Shown here piece by piece: positions 2,217 to 55,523 of a DNA stretch of 64,000 bases (within the stretch, counting starts at the first letter, position 1; each line of letters begins with the position of its first letter). The notes under the pieces are model-generated. The model searched no databases, was not told the DNA's origin, and was given only the letters and a program-made list of their open reading frames with translations. The stretch is from Candidatus Magasanikiibacteriota bacterium (GTDB lineage Bacteria > Patescibacteriota > Patescibacteriia > Magasanikbacterales > GWA2-37-8), in assembly GCA_036744835.1 (NCBI GenBank), contig DAIOHD010000001.1, positions 335,860 through 399,859 on the forward strand, read 5' to 3'. Made by a program: the position numbers and the translations under genes.

Positions 2217-4445
2217 ATGTTTAGTTGGCAGAAAATAATTTATAAAAAGATAGTGCCCGGTTTATATTCGATAGCCGGGCCTTTTGTTATTGCTTATTGT
2301 TGGAATTGGTATCATTTGACCTCTGTGAATCGTCAAACAGAACTTTGTTGGTTAACTTTGCTTTATGCCGGTTTAATTTTCTTTGTTTTTTTTCTTTTCA
2401 AAGGATTGTTTAGATTTTTAATTTCAAAGTTTAAATGGCATAGTTTTTGGTTAGATGAATTTATTATTTATTTGGATGAACTTTTTTTCTTGAGCTCTTT
2501 GATTTTTTTTGTTTTATTTTCTCAGTCTGAATTTTTAGGCCTAACTTACGTTCTATCTTTATTTTTTTTGATTTTTCTTCGTCTGGATAATATTTTAGGA
2601 AAACACAAAGAAGATTTACTTTGGCAAAAAGTAAATAGAAAAGTTTTTCTTTTGGCCGGTTTTATTTTTTTGATTACTGGGATTTTTCAGTTTATTGCTT
2701 ATACTTATTATATATTTGATAGTAATGCAAAATATCACAGTATTGTGTTGTTTCGTACTTTTTCTTTGACAGTTTTTTGGCTTGGGGGCTTCTCTCTTTG
2801 TAGTCTATTTTATTTTTATTTTAAAAAAATTCGCCAATTGTTTCTTTTTATTTGGTTAATCATGTTTGGGATGGCTTTGTTTTTGGATATGATAAATACG
2901 GGGATAGTCGGAAATTCCGGGCTTTATTTGAGCCCGGTAATATTAAATCACTTGAGTTTTACAGGGTTAAAAATATTTTTCTTCCCAGTAGCAACTGTTG
3001 TGGTTGTTTATTTTTTTCTGCTGGTCTTATCTTTTTTGATTTTTCAAAGTGTGTTAAAGGCCCATAAAGAAACCACCAGAAGACATTGGTTATTTTATAA
3101 TTTTGCTTTATTGTCTATATCTATCGCGGCTATATTTTCCGTAAGCTCTTTTTGGAACACACCACAAGCTACAACTTTTAAAAATTTTACGGCAAATAAA
3201 TTGGTAAAAAATATTATTATTTCTCCGGAGATTTGGCAAAAATTGGAAAAATTCGGTTTAATTTATAATTTGGAATCTTTTTCCGTAATGCGTAAAGTTC
3301 AGCCAAAAGAAAAAAAATTAAATTTAAAAATTGAAAAACCCAATATCATTTTGATTTATTTGGAATCTTTTTCCGCGCGCTTAACCGGAGTATACAATGA
3401 GGAATATATTGAAGTTACTCCAAATTTAAATGATTTTGCCGGTCATAAAAATACCACTGTATTTTCCAAAGTCTATAATGCTTCTACTCCTACAATTACC
3501 GGCTTGATTTCCTCATTATGTTCTTTTTTACCTCCGACGGGCCATCAAGAAATCGAACAGGACAAGTTGCTCAAAAGACAGTATTTGACTTGTTTACCGG
3601 TTATTTTGAAAGAAAACGGATATGAAAGTGCGACTTTTGTAACTGCGGTAGCCAAAGAGTTTGCCAATAAAAATACTATTTTGGAAAGTATGGGTATCGA
3701 GAGTGTTTATGGTGTTGATGAACTTAAAAAAGAAATCAAAGAAGACCCTAAGTCTTGGGGATATTCCGACCATCAACTTTTTCCATTTATTTTTGATTTA
3801 GCAAAAAATAAAAAAAATCCTTTTTTCTTGGGTTATGCGACGGTTGATACACATCCTCCTTTTGATTTACCTCAAGATTTAGTTAAATTCAAAGAAGGAG
3901 AAAATGTTGTTTTAAATTCTATTCACACCACTGATAGTGCCTTTGGTCTTTTTTGGAAAGAATTTCAAAAGAGCTCTTTGGCGCAAAATACAATTTTAGT
4001 AGTTATGGCCGATCACGCAATTTTTCCTACTGCGTTAAATAAAAAATATTTTCCAAATTTTGGAGGCCAGACAACTTTTTATGATGAATTGTTTATGGCG
4101 GTGTATATTCCGGAAAATCAATTACCAAAAAGAAATGAAATTTACGGTAGTGGTATTGATTTAGCACCGACTGTTTTACATTTATTAAATTTTTCATCAC
4201 CAAATTCTTTTGAAGGTTATTCTTTGTTAGGGGCTCGTAAAAAATATCCTAACCTTATTGGGATGCATGAATTTGGTCTTTATTTAAACCAAGAAACATT
4301 GGATAAAAAGCGACAAGAAGAATTTGTTATGCCAAATGATGTTGATTGTGAAGAAAAAATATCCGGTGATCTTTTAACAATGTGTGAACTTAAACAATAT
4401 TATGATTGGAAAAGACAGATGATGTTACAAGGTCGTTTGTGGTAA
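2217..4445 (+). CDS. Polytopic membrane protein with C-terminal sulfatase / LTA-synthase (LtaS)-like alkaline-phosphatase-superfamily domain
   Basis: N-terminal ~300 aa is multi-TM. C-terminal has NIILIYLESFSARL...TPTITGL...DTHPPFD, typical of LtaS / phosphoglycerol-transferase sulfatase domains. Confidence 0.75.
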   Translation: MFSWQKIIYKKIVPGLYSIAGPFVIAYCWNWYHLTSVNRQTELCWLTLLYAGLIFFVFFLFKGLFRFLISKFKWHSFWLDEFIIYLDELFFLSSLIFFVLFSQSEFLGLTYVLSLFFLIFLRLDNILGKHKEDLLWQKVNRKVFLLAGFIFLITGIFQFIAYTYYIFDSNAKYHSIVLFRTFSLTVFWLGGFSLCSLFYFYFKKIRQLFLFIWLIMFGMALFLDMINTGIVGNSGLYLSPVILNHLSFTGLKIFFFPVATVVVVYFFLLVLSFLIFQSVLKAHKETTRRHWLFYNFALLSISIAAIFSVSSFWNTPQATTFKNFTANKLVKNIIISPEIWQKLEKFGLIYNLESFSVMRKVQPKEKKLNLKIEKPNIILIYLESFSARLTGVYNEEYIEVTPNLNDFAGHKNTTVFSKVYNASTPTITGLISSLCSFLPPTGHQEIEQDKLLKRQYLTCLPVILKENGYESATFVTAVAKEFANKNTILESMGIESVYGVDELKKEIKEDPKSWGYSDHQLFPFIFDLAKNKKNPFFLGYATVDTHPPFDLPQDLVKFKEGENVVLNSIHTTDSAFGLFWKEFQKSSLAQNTILVVMADHAIFPTALNKKYFPNFGGQTTFYDELFMAVYIPENQLPKRNEIYGSGIDLAPTVLHLLNFSSPNSFEGYSLLGARKKYPNLIGMHEFGLYLNQETLDKKRQEEFVMPNDVDCEEKISGDLLTMCELKQYYDWKRQMMLQGRLW

Positions 4446-50556: not shown

Positions 50557-50670
50557 CACCCCGTGAAATAATTTTTGTTTTAACAAAAATTGGCGCAAAG
50601 CGCCATTTCACAGGGGTAAACCCCGTGAAATTTCGTAATTTCGCTTTAATTTCGTACGTTCGTACGTAAC
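50557..50670. repeat. GC-rich nested-hairpin intergenic element (E3) with an extra 3' copy of the outer-stem 5' arm
   Basis: CACCCCGTGAAAT [aatttttgtt-ttaac-aaaaatt] [ggcg-caaag-cgcc] ATTTCACAGGGGTAAA CCCCGTGAAAT ttcgtaatttcg...cgtacgttcgtacgtaac. Confidence 0.6.
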
Positions 50671-50676
50671 TAATCT

Positions 50677-50705
50677 TTGCAATCTTTTTAAATTTGTGTT
50701 ATAAT
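50677..50705 (+). promoter_or_regulatory. Promoter TTGCAA-17-TGtTATAAT for the metK leader
   Basis: Read directly. Confidence 0.6.
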
Positions 50706-50736
50706 ATTTTCAGACAATTTAATAATTAGTTTTATC

Positions 50737-50845
50737 CAGAGTGCAGTTTGTTTTTTCGCCTTGGCGAAGAATCTAGGGATCTAGCCCGAACACTGCCGAC
50801 AACCGTTGAAAGATGACTCTTTCAAAAAGGTGCCAATTCTAGCCT
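50737..50845 (+). promoter_or_regulatory. Candidate SAM-binding riboswitch aptamer (S-box-like, non-canonical order) in the metK leader
   Basis: Contains AGGGAUC...GCCCGAA...GCCGACAACC, GUUGAAAGAUGAC and GGUGCCAAUUC. These strongly resemble SAM-I/SAM-IV core segments (GGCAACC, GGUGCYAAUUCC), and the element is upstream of metK. The segment order differs from the T. tengcongensis SAM-I I remember, so the class is uncertain. Confidence 0.5.
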
Positions 50846-50870
50846 TAAACTCCGCTTAGCGGGGCGTAGG

Positions 50871-50940
50871 GGAAAGATATCAAGTCGATTTTTTATTTCT
50901 TAAATAAAAAAATATCTTTCCTCAAAAGGGAAAGTTTTTT
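50871..50940 (+). terminator. Riboswitch expression platform: antiterminator (ggaaagatat...atatctttcc) competing with an intrinsic terminator (ctttcc-tcaaaa-ggaaag-tttttt)
   Basis: 10-bp antiterminator stem 50871-80/50912-21. The terminator stem 50916-21/50929-34 reuses ctttcc and is followed by T6 at 50935-40. Confidence 0.6.
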
Positions 50941-50946
50941 ATTGAC

Positions 50947-51037
50947 TGTCATTGCGAGGAATGTAATGACGAAGCAATCCCACAAAGTTCAGAAAGCAGT
51001 GAGATTGCCACGTCGTCTGCGACTCCTCGCAATGACA
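50947..51037. repeat. 91-bp stem-loop: perfect 14-bp inverted repeat tgtcattgcgagga / tcctcgcaatgaca around a 63-nt partly self-complementary spacer
   Basis: Read directly; lies between the leader terminator and the metK ATG. Confidence 0.7.
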
Positions 51038-51082
51038 CCTTACTAATCTTTAAATCTTTAAATTTTTAAATCTTTAAATCTT

Positions 51083-52201
51083 ATGTTCAAAACTTGTGAA
51101 TCAGTTTGTGCCGGACATCCGGACAAAATTTGTGATCAAATTAGCGATGCAATACTTGACGCATGTTTGCGTGAAGACAGTGAAGCCAGAGTAGCCATAG
51201 AATGTCTCATCAAAGACAAACATCTTATCTTGGCCGGTGAGATAACTAGCTCTGCTAATCCCGATTTTATTGCTATTGCCAAAAACACTTTAGAAAAAAT
51301 CGGTTATACAAAAGAGGAAGTAGAAAAATTTCAAATTCAAAATCTTATCGGCAAACAATCTTCCCATATCGCGCAAGGAGTAGATACGGGCGGAGCCGGC
51401 GATCAAGGGATGATGTATGGTTATGCTACGGATGAAACTCCGGAGATGATGCCTCTGCCTAGTTTACTCTCGCATCGTTTATGTCAAAAACTCAACGCCT
51501 TGATGATAGAAGACGCTACTTGTCCGCTCAAACCAGACGGTAAAGCGCAAGTAACTATACTATATGAAAATGATAAACCACTCATGGCCGATACGGTCAT
51601 AGTTTCTGTTCAGCACACACCGGAAATCACTTCTCCTGATTTGGAAAAATATGTTTGGGAAAAAGTCATCCAACCTATTTGTGCTCCTTGGCTCAAAATA
51701 GGTCCTATCATCAATCCGCATTTCAAAGATAAACAAAATACAGAATTTACCAAAATCTTCATCAACCCAACCGGACGTTTTGAAATCGGCGGACCTGAAG
51801 GTGATTGCGGTTTGACCGGTCGTAAAATCGCTGTAGATACTTATGGTGGAATTGGTCGTATCGGCGGGGGAGCATTCTCAGGCAAAGATCCGAGCAAAGT
51901 AGACCGTAGCGCCGCTTATATGGCCCGTTATCTGGCAAAAAAGCTAGTTTCTCTAGGTTTTGCTGGCGAGGTAGAAGTTCGTCTAGCTTATGCTATCGGG
52001 GTAGCGCAACCGGTTGATGTCAGTGTAGATATTATCCGTGGTGACAAAACTCGCCAAAGCGAAGCGGTAAAATATTTACGAGAAAACTTTGATCTCACTC
52101 CATCAGGAATCATAGAATTTTTGCAATTGAAACAACCAATTTATTCCGCAACTTCCGCTTACGGACATTTTGGGAGAAACGGATTTAGTTGGGAAAAATA
52201 A
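51083..52201 (+). CDS. metK: S-adenosylmethionine synthetase
   Basis: CESVCAGHPDKICDQISDAILDACL...GGGAFSGKDPSKVDRSAAY canonical MetK motifs. Confidence 0.92.
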   Translation: MFKTCESVCAGHPDKICDQISDAILDACLREDSEARVAIECLIKDKHLILAGEITSSANPDFIAIAKNTLEKIGYTKEEVEKFQIQNLIGKQSSHIAQGVDTGGAGDQGMMYGYATDETPEMMPLPSLLSHRLCQKLNALMIEDATCPLKPDGKAQVTILYENDKPLMADTVIVSVQHTPEITSPDLEKYVWEKVIQPICAPWLKIGPIINPHFKDKQNTEFTKIFINPTGRFEIGGPEGDCGLTGRKIAVDTYGGIGRIGGGAFSGKDPSKVDRSAAYMARYLAKKLVSLGFAGEVEVRLAYAIGVAQPVDVSVDIIRGDKTRQSEAVKYLRENFDLTPSGIIEFLQLKQPIYSATSAYGHFGRNGFSWEK

Positions 52202-54626: not shown

Positions 54627-55316
54627 ATGTATATTTTTCTCGATGAAAGCGGACAATTTCATAAAAATCATAAAGACGATTATTTTGTGATTGGTTCTTT
54701 TACGATAGGTGACACAAAAAGAACGGCTAAACGTTTTAGATCTTGGTGTCGTACCAGATTTCCTAAAAAAATGTGTAAACAAGCGGAAATTAAATATTCT
54801 GATTCCGGTATATCCGATGAGCTTCGATTGAGAACCTTAAAATTCATTAGTTCTTTGGATGTAAGAGTGCGTTATAGTTTTATGAAAAAAGAAAATATTC
54901 CTGATGAATATAAAACTAAAGATACTTTAGAAAGTGGATTGCTCTATACTGCTATAGTCGGTGAGACCCTTGAATTATATTTACCAACTGATGATAATTT
55001 ATTACATGTTTTTTGTGATCAGCGTAGACTGAAAGGTGTTAGTAAAAAAGAATTTACGGAAAAAATTATACCTCATCTTTTGCCAAATTTATCAAAAGGC
55101 GGACAAATTAAAATTGAAATGGTTGATTCTAAAGAATACCCAAACATTCAAATCGCCGATTGGATTGTAGGTGGAATTGCCTCTTATTTAAATAAAAAAA
55201 ATTTGGGCGATGAAGTATTTACTATATTGAAAAATAATATTATTAGTGAAGGTAAAGAAATGTTTAAAGATTATTGGGATAATAAATATAACAAAAAACC
55301 CAATCTTATAGATTAG
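54627..55316 (+). CDS. DUF3800-family protein
   Basis: MYIFLDESGQF... N-terminal signature of DUF3800, 229 aa. Confidence 0.65.
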   Translation: MYIFLDESGQFHKNHKDDYFVIGSFTIGDTKRTAKRFRSWCRTRFPKKMCKQAEIKYSDSGISDELRLRTLKFISSLDVRVRYSFMKKENIPDEYKTKDTLESGLLYTAIVGETLELYLPTDDNLLHVFCDQRRLKGVSKKEFTEKIIPHLLPNLSKGGQIKIEMVDSKEYPNIQIADWIVGGIASYLNKKNLGDEVFTILKNNIISEGKEMFKDYWDNKYNKKPNLID

Positions 55317-55327
55317 GCATTTTGTTG

Positions 55328-55403
55328 AAGCAGCGTCTCCCAACGCGGAATTCCACAGCTGAAGCCTCAGGTTCCCTGAGGGAGCACCGTGGCGCACTGA
55401 AAG
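55328..55403. other. GC-rich structured segment between convergent genes
   Basis: gcgtctcccaacgcggaattccacagctgaagcctcaggttccctgagggagcaccgtggcgcac, containing cctcag-gttcc-ctgagg hairpin. Not a complete tRNA. Confidence 0.4.
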
Positions 55404-55523
55404 CTATTATTGCATACTTCAATATTAATATACCACAAAATCAGTCTTTAGTCAATATTTATCCACAACACAAATTCCGCCAAATAAGCGGAATTTTTTG
55501 TATGTTTACGATTTTGTTTTTAT

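Follow-up and report, generated by a model that had tools for sequence, protein, structure and literature searches.

The window analyzed here, a 64,000-nucleotide (nt) stretch of contig DAIOHD010000001.1 from a Candidatus Magasanikiibacteriota bacterium, has a GC content of approximately 34% and carries metK, the gene for S-adenosylmethionine (SAM) synthetase, behind a long structured leader (Table 1). From its 5' end, this leader comprises a putative promoter, an element resembling the aptamer of a SAM riboswitch, an apparent terminator/antiterminator pair, a 91-nt hairpin, and a series of short repeats abutting the start codon. A first-pass annotation had described the aptamer as having its conserved segments in a non-canonical order and the hairpin as an extra structured element belonging to the leader. 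The comparison with related leaders described below suggests a different view of both. The region 50729-50940 is very probably a SAM-I (S-box) riboswitch with a derived P2 domain, which would switch off metK transcription when SAM is abundant, while the downstream hairpin would form no part of the switch. The riboswitch class is known and its logic, in which SAM-I controls metK by termination, is textbook; the main value of the present analysis is corrective, in that the aptamer is not permuted and the large hairpin appears to be a repeat insertion. What is new is modest, namely a putative SAM-I variant specific to a small Patescibacteria lineage, in which the kink turn (K-turn) has been exchanged for a three-way junction and the long-range pseudoknot has been kept.

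Table 1. Predicted features of the metK leader and the gene downstream (positions in the window)
Feature	Position	Strand	Basis or remark
Sigma-70-like promoter, TTGCAA-17 nt-TATAAT with TG extension	50677-50705	+	Consensus scan, 10/12 match
SAM-I aptamer, canonical order P1-P2-P3-P4	50729-50883	+	Full-length RF00162 match; R1 match; segment parse
P1 5' strand, UUAUC	50732-50736	+	Pairs with 50876-50880
J1/2, CAGAGU	50737-50742	+	
P2	50743-50796	+	P2a 50743-50746/50793-50796; P2b 50776-50778/50785-50787
Lineage-specific insertion in the 5' (non-bulged) strand of P2	50747-50775	+	Stem 50752-50759/50764-50771, loop CUUG; in all six group A leaders
P2b loop CUAG, 5' half of pseudoknot	50781-50784	+	Pairs with CUAG 50839-50842 in J3/4
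P3 5' strand, GACAACC	50798-50804	+	
P3 distal hairpin UUGAAAG/CUUUCAA, holding GUUGAAAGAUGAC (50805-50817)	50805-50828	+	Fold
P3 3' strand, GGUGCC	50829-50834	+	
J3/4, AAUUCUAG	50835-50842	+	
P4, extended: CCUU/AGGG base, internal loop, 6-bp distal stem CUCCGC/GCGGGG	50843-50872	+	Found throughout group A, with compensatory changes
Antiterminator: GGAAAGAUAU (J4/1 and 3' P1, 50871-50880) with AUAUCUUUCC (50912-50921)	50871-50921	+	Perfect inverted repeat
J4/1 and 3' P1 strand, AAA-GAUAU = AAAGAUAU	50873-50880	+	J4/1 50873-50875; P1 GAUAU 50876-50880
Intrinsic terminator, CUUUCC(U)-loop-(G)GGAAAG, then U6	50916-50940	+	Terminator scan
Inverted doublet of dispersed ~34-nt repeat	50947-51037	.	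+ unit 50948-50979 (GTCATTGCGAGGAATGTAATGACGAAGCAATC), 23-nt spacer, - unit 51003-51036
A/U-rich tandem 8-mers (AATCTTTA, ~5 copies), metK initiation region without Shine-Dalgarno motif	51045-51084	+	Direct-repeat scan
metK, SAM synthetase, 372 aa, predicted regulated gene	51083-52201	+	Pfam S-AdoMet_synt N, M, and C domains, E 1e-30 to 1e-58

The closest relatives of the window MetK are metagenomic MetK proteins, some of which are labelled Patescibacteria. Together they make up a separate clade with 57-91% identity, against a background of approximately 55%. The metK loci of this clade were fetched and 13 distinct leaders were compared. The usable relatives came from a protein database and exact look-ups; when GTDB genomes and JGI metagenomes were scanned with metK, a single clade member, L081, was returned, and none of the remaining matches exceeded 54% identity or was of use for the leader. 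Two groups are distinguished in the following: group A, consisting of the window, L161, L168, L167, L164, and L169, with MetK proteins 73-91% identical to that of the window, and group B, consisting of L081, L171, and L173-L177, with MetK proteins 64-71% identical to it.

Regarding the identity of the aptamer, a scan of the whole window at the Rfam gathering threshold, which is 44.4 bits for RF00162 (SAM-I), reported no SAM family. In E-value mode, RF00162 aligned end to end (model 1-108) with 50729-50883 at 21.2 bits (E 0.036), the window having 47 nt against 19 in the model in P2 and 18 nt against 5 in P4. The group B leaders scored 58-66 bits, above the cut-off, and those of group A 21-40 bits, below it, with the window lowest and the other members at 25-40 bits. 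We also used a covariance model, R1, constructed from six cut-off-passing group B aptamers only and searched in 188 kb; it matched exactly 50729-50883 in the window (29.1 bits, E 5.7e-6) and every other group A leader at E 1e-12 to 3e-9, these E-values being rough because of a short calibration. Since leaders of the same clade reach 58-66 bits and R1 matches, the window aptamer is, as judged from its sequence, a diverged orthologue of genuine SAM-I leaders despite its sub-threshold Rfam score. The presence of a SAM riboswitch-type aptamer upstream of metK, as initially proposed, is thus supported at the sequence level. The first-pass annotation had named the lack of a significant Rfam hit as grounds for abandoning this proposal; there is indeed no match at the gathering level, but that outcome is misleading because the sub-threshold match is homologous to bona fide SAM-I leaders.

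A further Patescibacteria leader with a sub-threshold score precedes metK in a Candidatus Woesebacteria sequence (L042, 2799-2909), where the SAM-I aptamer scored 32 bits; its GAUGA K-turn strand is intact, and a terminator is present. Within this radiation, SAM-I leaders that have diverged are evidently common. Since this leader and all of group A fall under the Rfam cut-off, riboswitch censuses of candidate-phyla genomes are likely to under-count.

The order of the segments requires a more detailed consideration. The core-like segments GCCGACAACC (50795-50804) and GGUGCCAAUUC (50829-50839) are present as initially described, and GUUGAAAGAUGAC, which lies between them, had been taken for the P1/J4-1 core. 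With that core ahead of GGUGCCAAUUC, the aptamer would be permuted or SAM-I/IV-like and would represent a new SAM topology, to which the absence of any SAM family at the gathering score could be added as support. The basis of this reading is GUUGAAAGAUGA (50805-50816), the first 12 nt of GUUGAAAGAUGAC. The T. tengcongensis SAM-I reference aptamer has this 12-mer at its 3' end (...CGUUGAAAGAUGAGCCA, as given in PMC5393176), and the presence of this look-alike in P3 explains the impression of a swapped order. However, it is part of a self-complementary, variable distal hairpin of P3, the stem of which is entirely different in L161, L164, L168, and L169, and the likeness is therefore regarded as coincidental. 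The canonical 3' strand GAAAGAUAU is located at 50872-50880, where it pairs with UAUC 50733-50736; the initial description had given this strand (AAAGAUAU) to the antiterminator only. Both RF00162 and R1 align over their full length in the normal order, by which a permutation had already been refuted. In the competition within the SAM clan, SAM-I was the best-scoring family, above SAM-IV and SAM-I/IV, and the SAM-I pseudoknot and P4 are both present. We consider a permuted or SAM-I/IV-like arrangement to be extremely improbable.

SAM-IV (RF00634) and SAM-I/IV (RF01725) belong to the same clan and have a SAM-I-like binding core, and the P2 of SAM-IV also lacks a K-turn. The pseudoknot and peripheral architecture of these two families are different and involve the 3' tail. 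The window, in contrast, has retained the pseudoknot of SAM-I, and its P4 hairpin is placed as in SAM-I. SAM-I/IV resembles group A in having a P2 without a K-turn (sequence in PMC5393176).

The canonical reading is borne out by the conservation of the core. The blocks UAUCCAGAG, GACAACC, GGUGCCAA, and AAAGAUA are present in the window, and the core columns are invariant in the 13 leaders. The SAM-I core blocks UAUC-AGAG, CAACC, GGUGCC-AA, and GAUA have been kept; they would contain the residues that contact SAM in the 2GIS structure. Across the 13 leaders, the 22 core pairs of P1, P2a, P2b, P3, and the pseudoknot were 97.2% paired, as compared with 25-45% when the 3' partners were slid by 1-3 columns, and some of the P1 cells of the window and L176 counted as unpaired are MAFFT offsets in the 13-sequence alignment. 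One compensatory pair each was found in P2a (G-C in 7 leaders, A-U in 6), P2b (G-C in 11, A-U in 2), and P3 (G-C in 8, A-U in 5), as well as in the pseudoknot, in which columns 54/114 are C-G in 7 leaders and U-A in 6, and never unpaired. The covariation score was not reached by any of 500 shuffles. The pseudoknot, CCAG/CUGG in group B and CUAG/CUAG in group A, has thus been kept via a compensatory change, although its formation is normally enabled by the K-turn, which group A lacks.

The expression platform is in agreement with the initial description. The perfect 10-bp antiterminator is present, as is the terminator, the hairpin of which occupies 50916-50934 and is followed by T6, and four terminator-like sites were found in the region against 0.5 expected. 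A terminator hairpin with a U-run directly follows the aptamer in all 13 leaders, and in most of them J4/1 and the 3' strand of P1 (GGGAAAGAU) have an alternative helix with the terminator's 5' arm. In the window, the antiterminator is the minimum free energy structure of the leader without a ligand and encloses a small A/U hairpin (50889-50898/50902-50911). A conserved motif, RGGUCGAW, follows P1 and precedes the terminator in 10 of the 13 leaders (AGUCGAU at 50884-50890 in the window), often as the loop of a small hairpin within the antiterminator.

We infer SAM binding and the OFF logic from these features, as follows. SAM would bind the four-way-junction aptamer and lock P1 and J4/1, whereby GGAAAGAUAU would become unavailable and CUUUCC (50916-50921) would be free to pair with GGAAAG (50929-50934), such that RNA polymerase would stop at the U6 run. 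Without SAM, GGAAAGAUAU would pair with AUAUCUUUCC, and the resulting antiterminator would allow transcription to proceed into metK. This scheme and the overall architecture resemble those of known SAM-I riboswitches (RF00162; T. tengcongensis metF, Bacillus subtilis metK/yitJ) in the four-way P1-P4 junction with an equal order of segments, the J1/2, P3, and J3/4 cores, the pseudoknot between the P2b loop and J3/4, the site before metK, and the predicted terminator/antiterminator OFF switch using the 3' strand of P1.

The two groups differ in P2 and P4. In group B, P2 carries the SAM-I K-turn signature, GCGG-NGA-GGG...CCC-NAUGA-C-CCGC, whereas the corresponding arrangement in group A is GCAG-(U-rich linker)-hairpin-(N)UA-GGG...CCC-RAAMA-YUGC, which reads CUA-GGG...CCC-GAACA in the window. 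A direct test for the SAM-I K-turn signature, which comprises GA in the 5' strand and a 3-nt bulge with GA in the 3' strand, was negative for the window, in which the strand opposite the insertion (50788-50792) is GAACA in place of GAUGA. The insertion itself, 29 nt in the window, turns the K-turn site into a predicted three-way junction. Its hairpin has 6-9 bp in group A and occurs with four distinct stems, UUCGCC/GGCGAA, CCCGC/GCGGG, UUCCGC/GGUGGAA, and UUUCGA/UCGGAA; the four distinct P2 domains each fold independently to one three-way junction, with modest z-scores of -1.3 to -2.4. The P2 segment is 51-56 nt long in group A against 28-32 nt in 35 other metK SAM-I cores from diverse phyla, in which it ends in a GA-containing K-turn strand. 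P4 is a 3-bp CCC-GNRA-GGG hairpin in group B, whereas in group A its base has 4 bp and is separated by an internal loop from a 5-6-bp stem; this longer P4 folds in each distinct version, even though the stems have been rewritten. On these sequence comparisons, group A is a derived SAM-I sub-lineage with the K-turn exchanged for a three-way junction and an enlarged P4. As compared with known SAM-I riboswitches, its P2 lacks the K-turn, has a hairpin in the non-bulged strand, and is approximately 22-25 nt longer, and its P4 is extended by the internal loop and the 5-6-bp stem. At 21-40 bits, under 44.4, the group A variant is missed by standard annotation, an escape ascribed to the exchange of the K-turn. 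A scan of IMG/VR with a K-turn-less core pattern gave no matches and no further members of the variant. A kissing interaction between the loop of the insert hairpin and that of P4 was considered and dropped because CUUG and UUA are not complementary.

The topology of the group A junction, with a hairpin in the non-bulged strand, is that of a k-junction, as described for the thiamine pyrophosphate (TPP) riboswitch (Wang, Daldrop, Huang & Lilley 2014, PMC4005666). However, k-junctions keep a G-A/A-G (or A-A) core, which is missing in group A (RAAMA opposite yUA); the 1b/2b positions lack GA (CA or AA), and there is no GA in the other strand by the non-canonical (NC) helix, which is a U-rich linker. 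We do not call group A a k-junction because this core is absent. A natural replacement of a K-turn by another kink has been reported for the pk-turn of RNase P and for the Thermotoga maritima lysine riboswitch, and an engineered SAM-I riboswitch with a pk-turn still binds SAM (PMC4316175, PMC3672288). No natural SAM-I example is mentioned in PMC4005666, PMC4316175, or PMC3672288, and our literature search, which was limited in coverage, did not find a report of a natural SAM-I of the group A form. The present variant bears on the exchange of RNA architectural modules in evolution, for which the examples so far are RNase P and the lysine riboswitch, with SAM-I represented by engineering only.

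Considering the extent of this divergence, group A may instead be a decaying relic of SAM-I that no longer binds SAM, leaving the leader constitutive or an attenuator regulated in another manner. Several observations weigh against a functional riboswitch, and among them the lost K-turn, the low score, the short P1, and the mismatches may be counted in favor of such decay. The K-turn, which is described as conserved in SAM-I (PMC2258182) and is important for folding, is absent, and ligand binding is therefore not to be assumed. The Rfam score of the window is less than half of the gathering cut-off and the weakest of the group. The P1 helix of the window is short, with just four Watson-Crick pairs and then a U-U mismatch at the outer pair, and its second P3 pair is an A-C mismatch, which also occurs in L167 and in the high-scoring L176. 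The compensatory changes mostly split group A from group B and may thus represent few independent events, and the insert hairpin is known in just four distinct sequences. Reduced genomes of Patescibacteria, moreover, often lose regulation. On the other hand, the variant architecture has been kept over six leaders whose MetK proteins are just 73-91% identical to that of the window, compensatory changes maintain P2a, the pseudoknot, the insert hairpin, and P4, the core blocks are invariant, and the terminator/antiterminator logic is intact, features that decay would not be expected to preserve. A relic is, in our view, quite unlikely. We are slightly inclined to regard group A as a functional SAM-I sub-class under the Rfam threshold, in which the K-turn has been naturally replaced by a three-way junction and P4 enlarged, and which would still bind SAM and form the pseudoknot. 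We infer that the bend normally provided by the K-turn may here be supplied by the three-way junction.

The 91-nt hairpin downstream of the terminator appears to be of a different origin. The perfect 14-bp inverted repeat enclosing 63 nt (50947-50960/51024-51037) is present as initially described and extends to a near-continuous hairpin of -45.1 kcal/mol (z = -7.0). The hairpin is composed of two slightly different units of a dispersed repeat in inverted orientation. A 30-nt pattern of this unit with 22 specified bases matched 104 IMG/VR stretches, and 150 copies, located in 104 unrelated contigs with GC contents of 32-71%, yielded the consensus GTCATTGCGAGGAGCGnAGCGACGAAGCAATCTC. The 8-nt centre of the repeat covaries (GCGAAGCG, ACGCAGTG, GTGAAACG, ATGTAATG) and retains a 2-bp mini-stem, and its 5' end is YGTC; of the copies listed, 68 begin with CGTC and another 68 with TGTC, the form also seen in the window copy. 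The copies occur as singletons, tandem arrays, and inverted doublets, and doublets of 86-97 nt similar to that of the window were found in L188, L196, L207, L224, and L249. In another IMG/VR contig (L179, 7490-8095), an intergenic region is filled with direct copies of the 34-nt unit at a spacing of approximately 44 nt together with degenerate ones, and the centres GCAAAGCG and ATGTAATG alternate. Further copies of the 14-nt arms, which the first-pass annotation had suggested looking for, were not detected beyond chance within the 64-kb window; the same applied to the inner arms, and the window holds one doublet only.

Among the 13 leaders, the doublet occurs outside the window only in L167, at the corresponding position, and is absent from the other 11. 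The stretch 50947-51037 is 100% identical between the window and L167, while the aptamer is 80%, the platform 69%, and the region after the doublet 44% identical, and the identity ends exactly at the ends of the inverted repeat. These sharp ends, the patchy distribution, and the membership in a dispersed family indicate that the hairpin is, as far as sequence comparison allows, an inserted REPIN-like repeat doublet rather than a riboswitch component. The doublet would have landed in the read-through part of the 5' untranslated region (UTR) and at most have added a stable hairpin to the full-length mRNA.

Alternatively, the hairpin may be a dedicated second regulatory or stabilizing element of the metK leader, which might act as a barrier to RNases, bind a protein, or modulate translation. 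The stability of the hairpin (-45 kcal/mol, z = -7), its position in the read-through 5' UTR, and its conservation in L167 between flanks of only 44-69% identity would fit this possibility; the base-for-base retention of the doublet at one site in two lineages could mean some use there, which is a point against a mere insertion. In addition, L161 and L168 have a different structured insert at the same place, and some structure might thus be favored. However, nothing is found at this position in L164, L169, or any of the seven group B leaders, the identity is lost exactly where the inverted repeat ends, which is the pattern that an insertion would leave, and the two units belong to a repeat that has 150 copies in 104 unrelated contigs, including doublets and tandem arrays. 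Since no U-tract was found after the hairpin, it is not a terminator. A dedicated element is therefore considered unlikely, and an inserted doublet remains our preferred explanation.

The alternative insert in L161 (~2770-2925) and L168 (~1771-1925) is a GA/CT-rich structured segment of approximately 150 nt (GACTCCCACCCTATCCCTCCTC...GGGAGGGAGTGGGAG...GAGGGAGAGTC) that is bounded by inverted repeats. Insertions thus seem to favor the site immediately 3' of the riboswitch terminator, which may be a hot spot.

The repeat resembles the REP, REPIN, and BIME elements (Bertels & Rainey 2011, PMC3116915; Di Nocera et al. 2013, PMC3733652) in its short structured unit of approximately 34 nt, its occurrence as singletons, tandem arrays, and inverted doublets that form long hairpins, its intergenic and terminator-proximal location, and the sharp end of identity at the element ends. 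REPINs usually remain specific to one lineage, but this unit is conserved over contigs ranging from 32 to 71% in GC. Repeats of the REP type are marked by many copies per host genome, a GTAG or CGTC tag at their ends, and a cognate RAYT (IS200-IS605-type) transposase; here, just one doublet occurs in the 64 kb of the window, and the 5' tag is YGTC (CGTC in half), not GTAG. Di Nocera et al. (2013) do not include the unit, and a literature search by its sequence returned unrelated primers only and no published name. A Pfam scan of its six-frame peptides gave nothing, and a BLAST search of the hairpin against annotated phages gave two short unannotated matches only.

Spurious open reading frames (ORFs) and N-terminal extensions also arise frequently from the dispersed 34-nt repeat. 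In L167 (2001-2174), for example, the database MetK (P0002, 430 aa) has a spurious N-terminal extension of approximately 58 aa, in which the leader has been translated through the doublet (...CHCEECNDEAIPQSSESSEIATSSATPRND...), while the real metK start aligns with the ATG of the window.

Regarding the ends of the leader, the promoter call was made by a consensus scan as the sole source; the -10 box and an ACAAUUU motif are kept in related leaders, and no second promoter 3' of the terminator appeared in the promoter scan. The conserved ACAAUU lies directly after the promoter at the predicted 5' end of the transcript. A long-range helix of this motif with the region after P1 was considered and dropped, since the sequences are A/U-rich and their complementarity was not convincing. 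The lack of a Shine-Dalgarno (SD) motif before metK, the start of which is at 51083, was correctly noted in the first-pass annotation. An SD-like motif precedes only 8 of the 44 large ORFs (>=150 aa) of the window, and its absence is the norm of this genome and not special to metK. The A/U-rich start regions and the rarity of SD motifs point to largely SD-independent initiation in this organism. A AAATCTCTTAAAT-type tract similar to the 8-mers of the window is present in L161, L167, and L168.

A number of minor observations were made on the surroundings of the leader. A composite palindrome, CACCCCGTGAAAT...ATTTCACAGGGG, at 50557-50616 of the window encloses two small hairpins, and its first 12 nt are repeated at 50620. 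The palindrome is almost identical in L168, where it also lies upstream of metK. Between the palindrome and the metK promoter of the window is a segment of approximately 50 nt, AATTTCGTAATTTCGCTTTAATTTCGTACGTTCGTACGTAACTAA (50620-50671), which in L161 (~2925-2975) and L168 (~1925-1975) is instead located 3' of the riboswitch terminator, just before the ATG; in L168, the upstream palindrome is shared with the window and the segment is absent from that place. From this distribution, AATTTCGTAATTTCGCTTTAATTTCGTACGTTCGTACGTAACTAA looks like a small relocated or mobile segment.

L161 (2520-3060) and L168 (1521-2060) are near-identical in two blocks, one of which starts at the -10 box, covers the leader, and ends after ~46 codons of metK, while the other consists of the last ~80 codons. 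The middle of their MetK proteins (P0001 and P0004, respectively) has diverged, with 81% identity overall, and no relationship is seen between the two sequences upstream of the -10 box. This mosaic suggests recombination at the metK locus between related populations.

Downstream of metK, L173 (1525-2745) has a second AdoMet synthetase gene, of the archaeal type (Pfam PF01941), immediately 3' of the first. In the window, a DUF3800-V RNA (Rfam RF02964, 73 bits, E 1e-14) is found on the reverse strand at 55326-55421, antisense and directly 3' of a DUF3800 gene on the forward strand (54627-55316). A pair consisting of a DUF3800-V RNA (2579-2674, reverse strand, 68 bits) and a DUF3800 gene also follows metK in L164.

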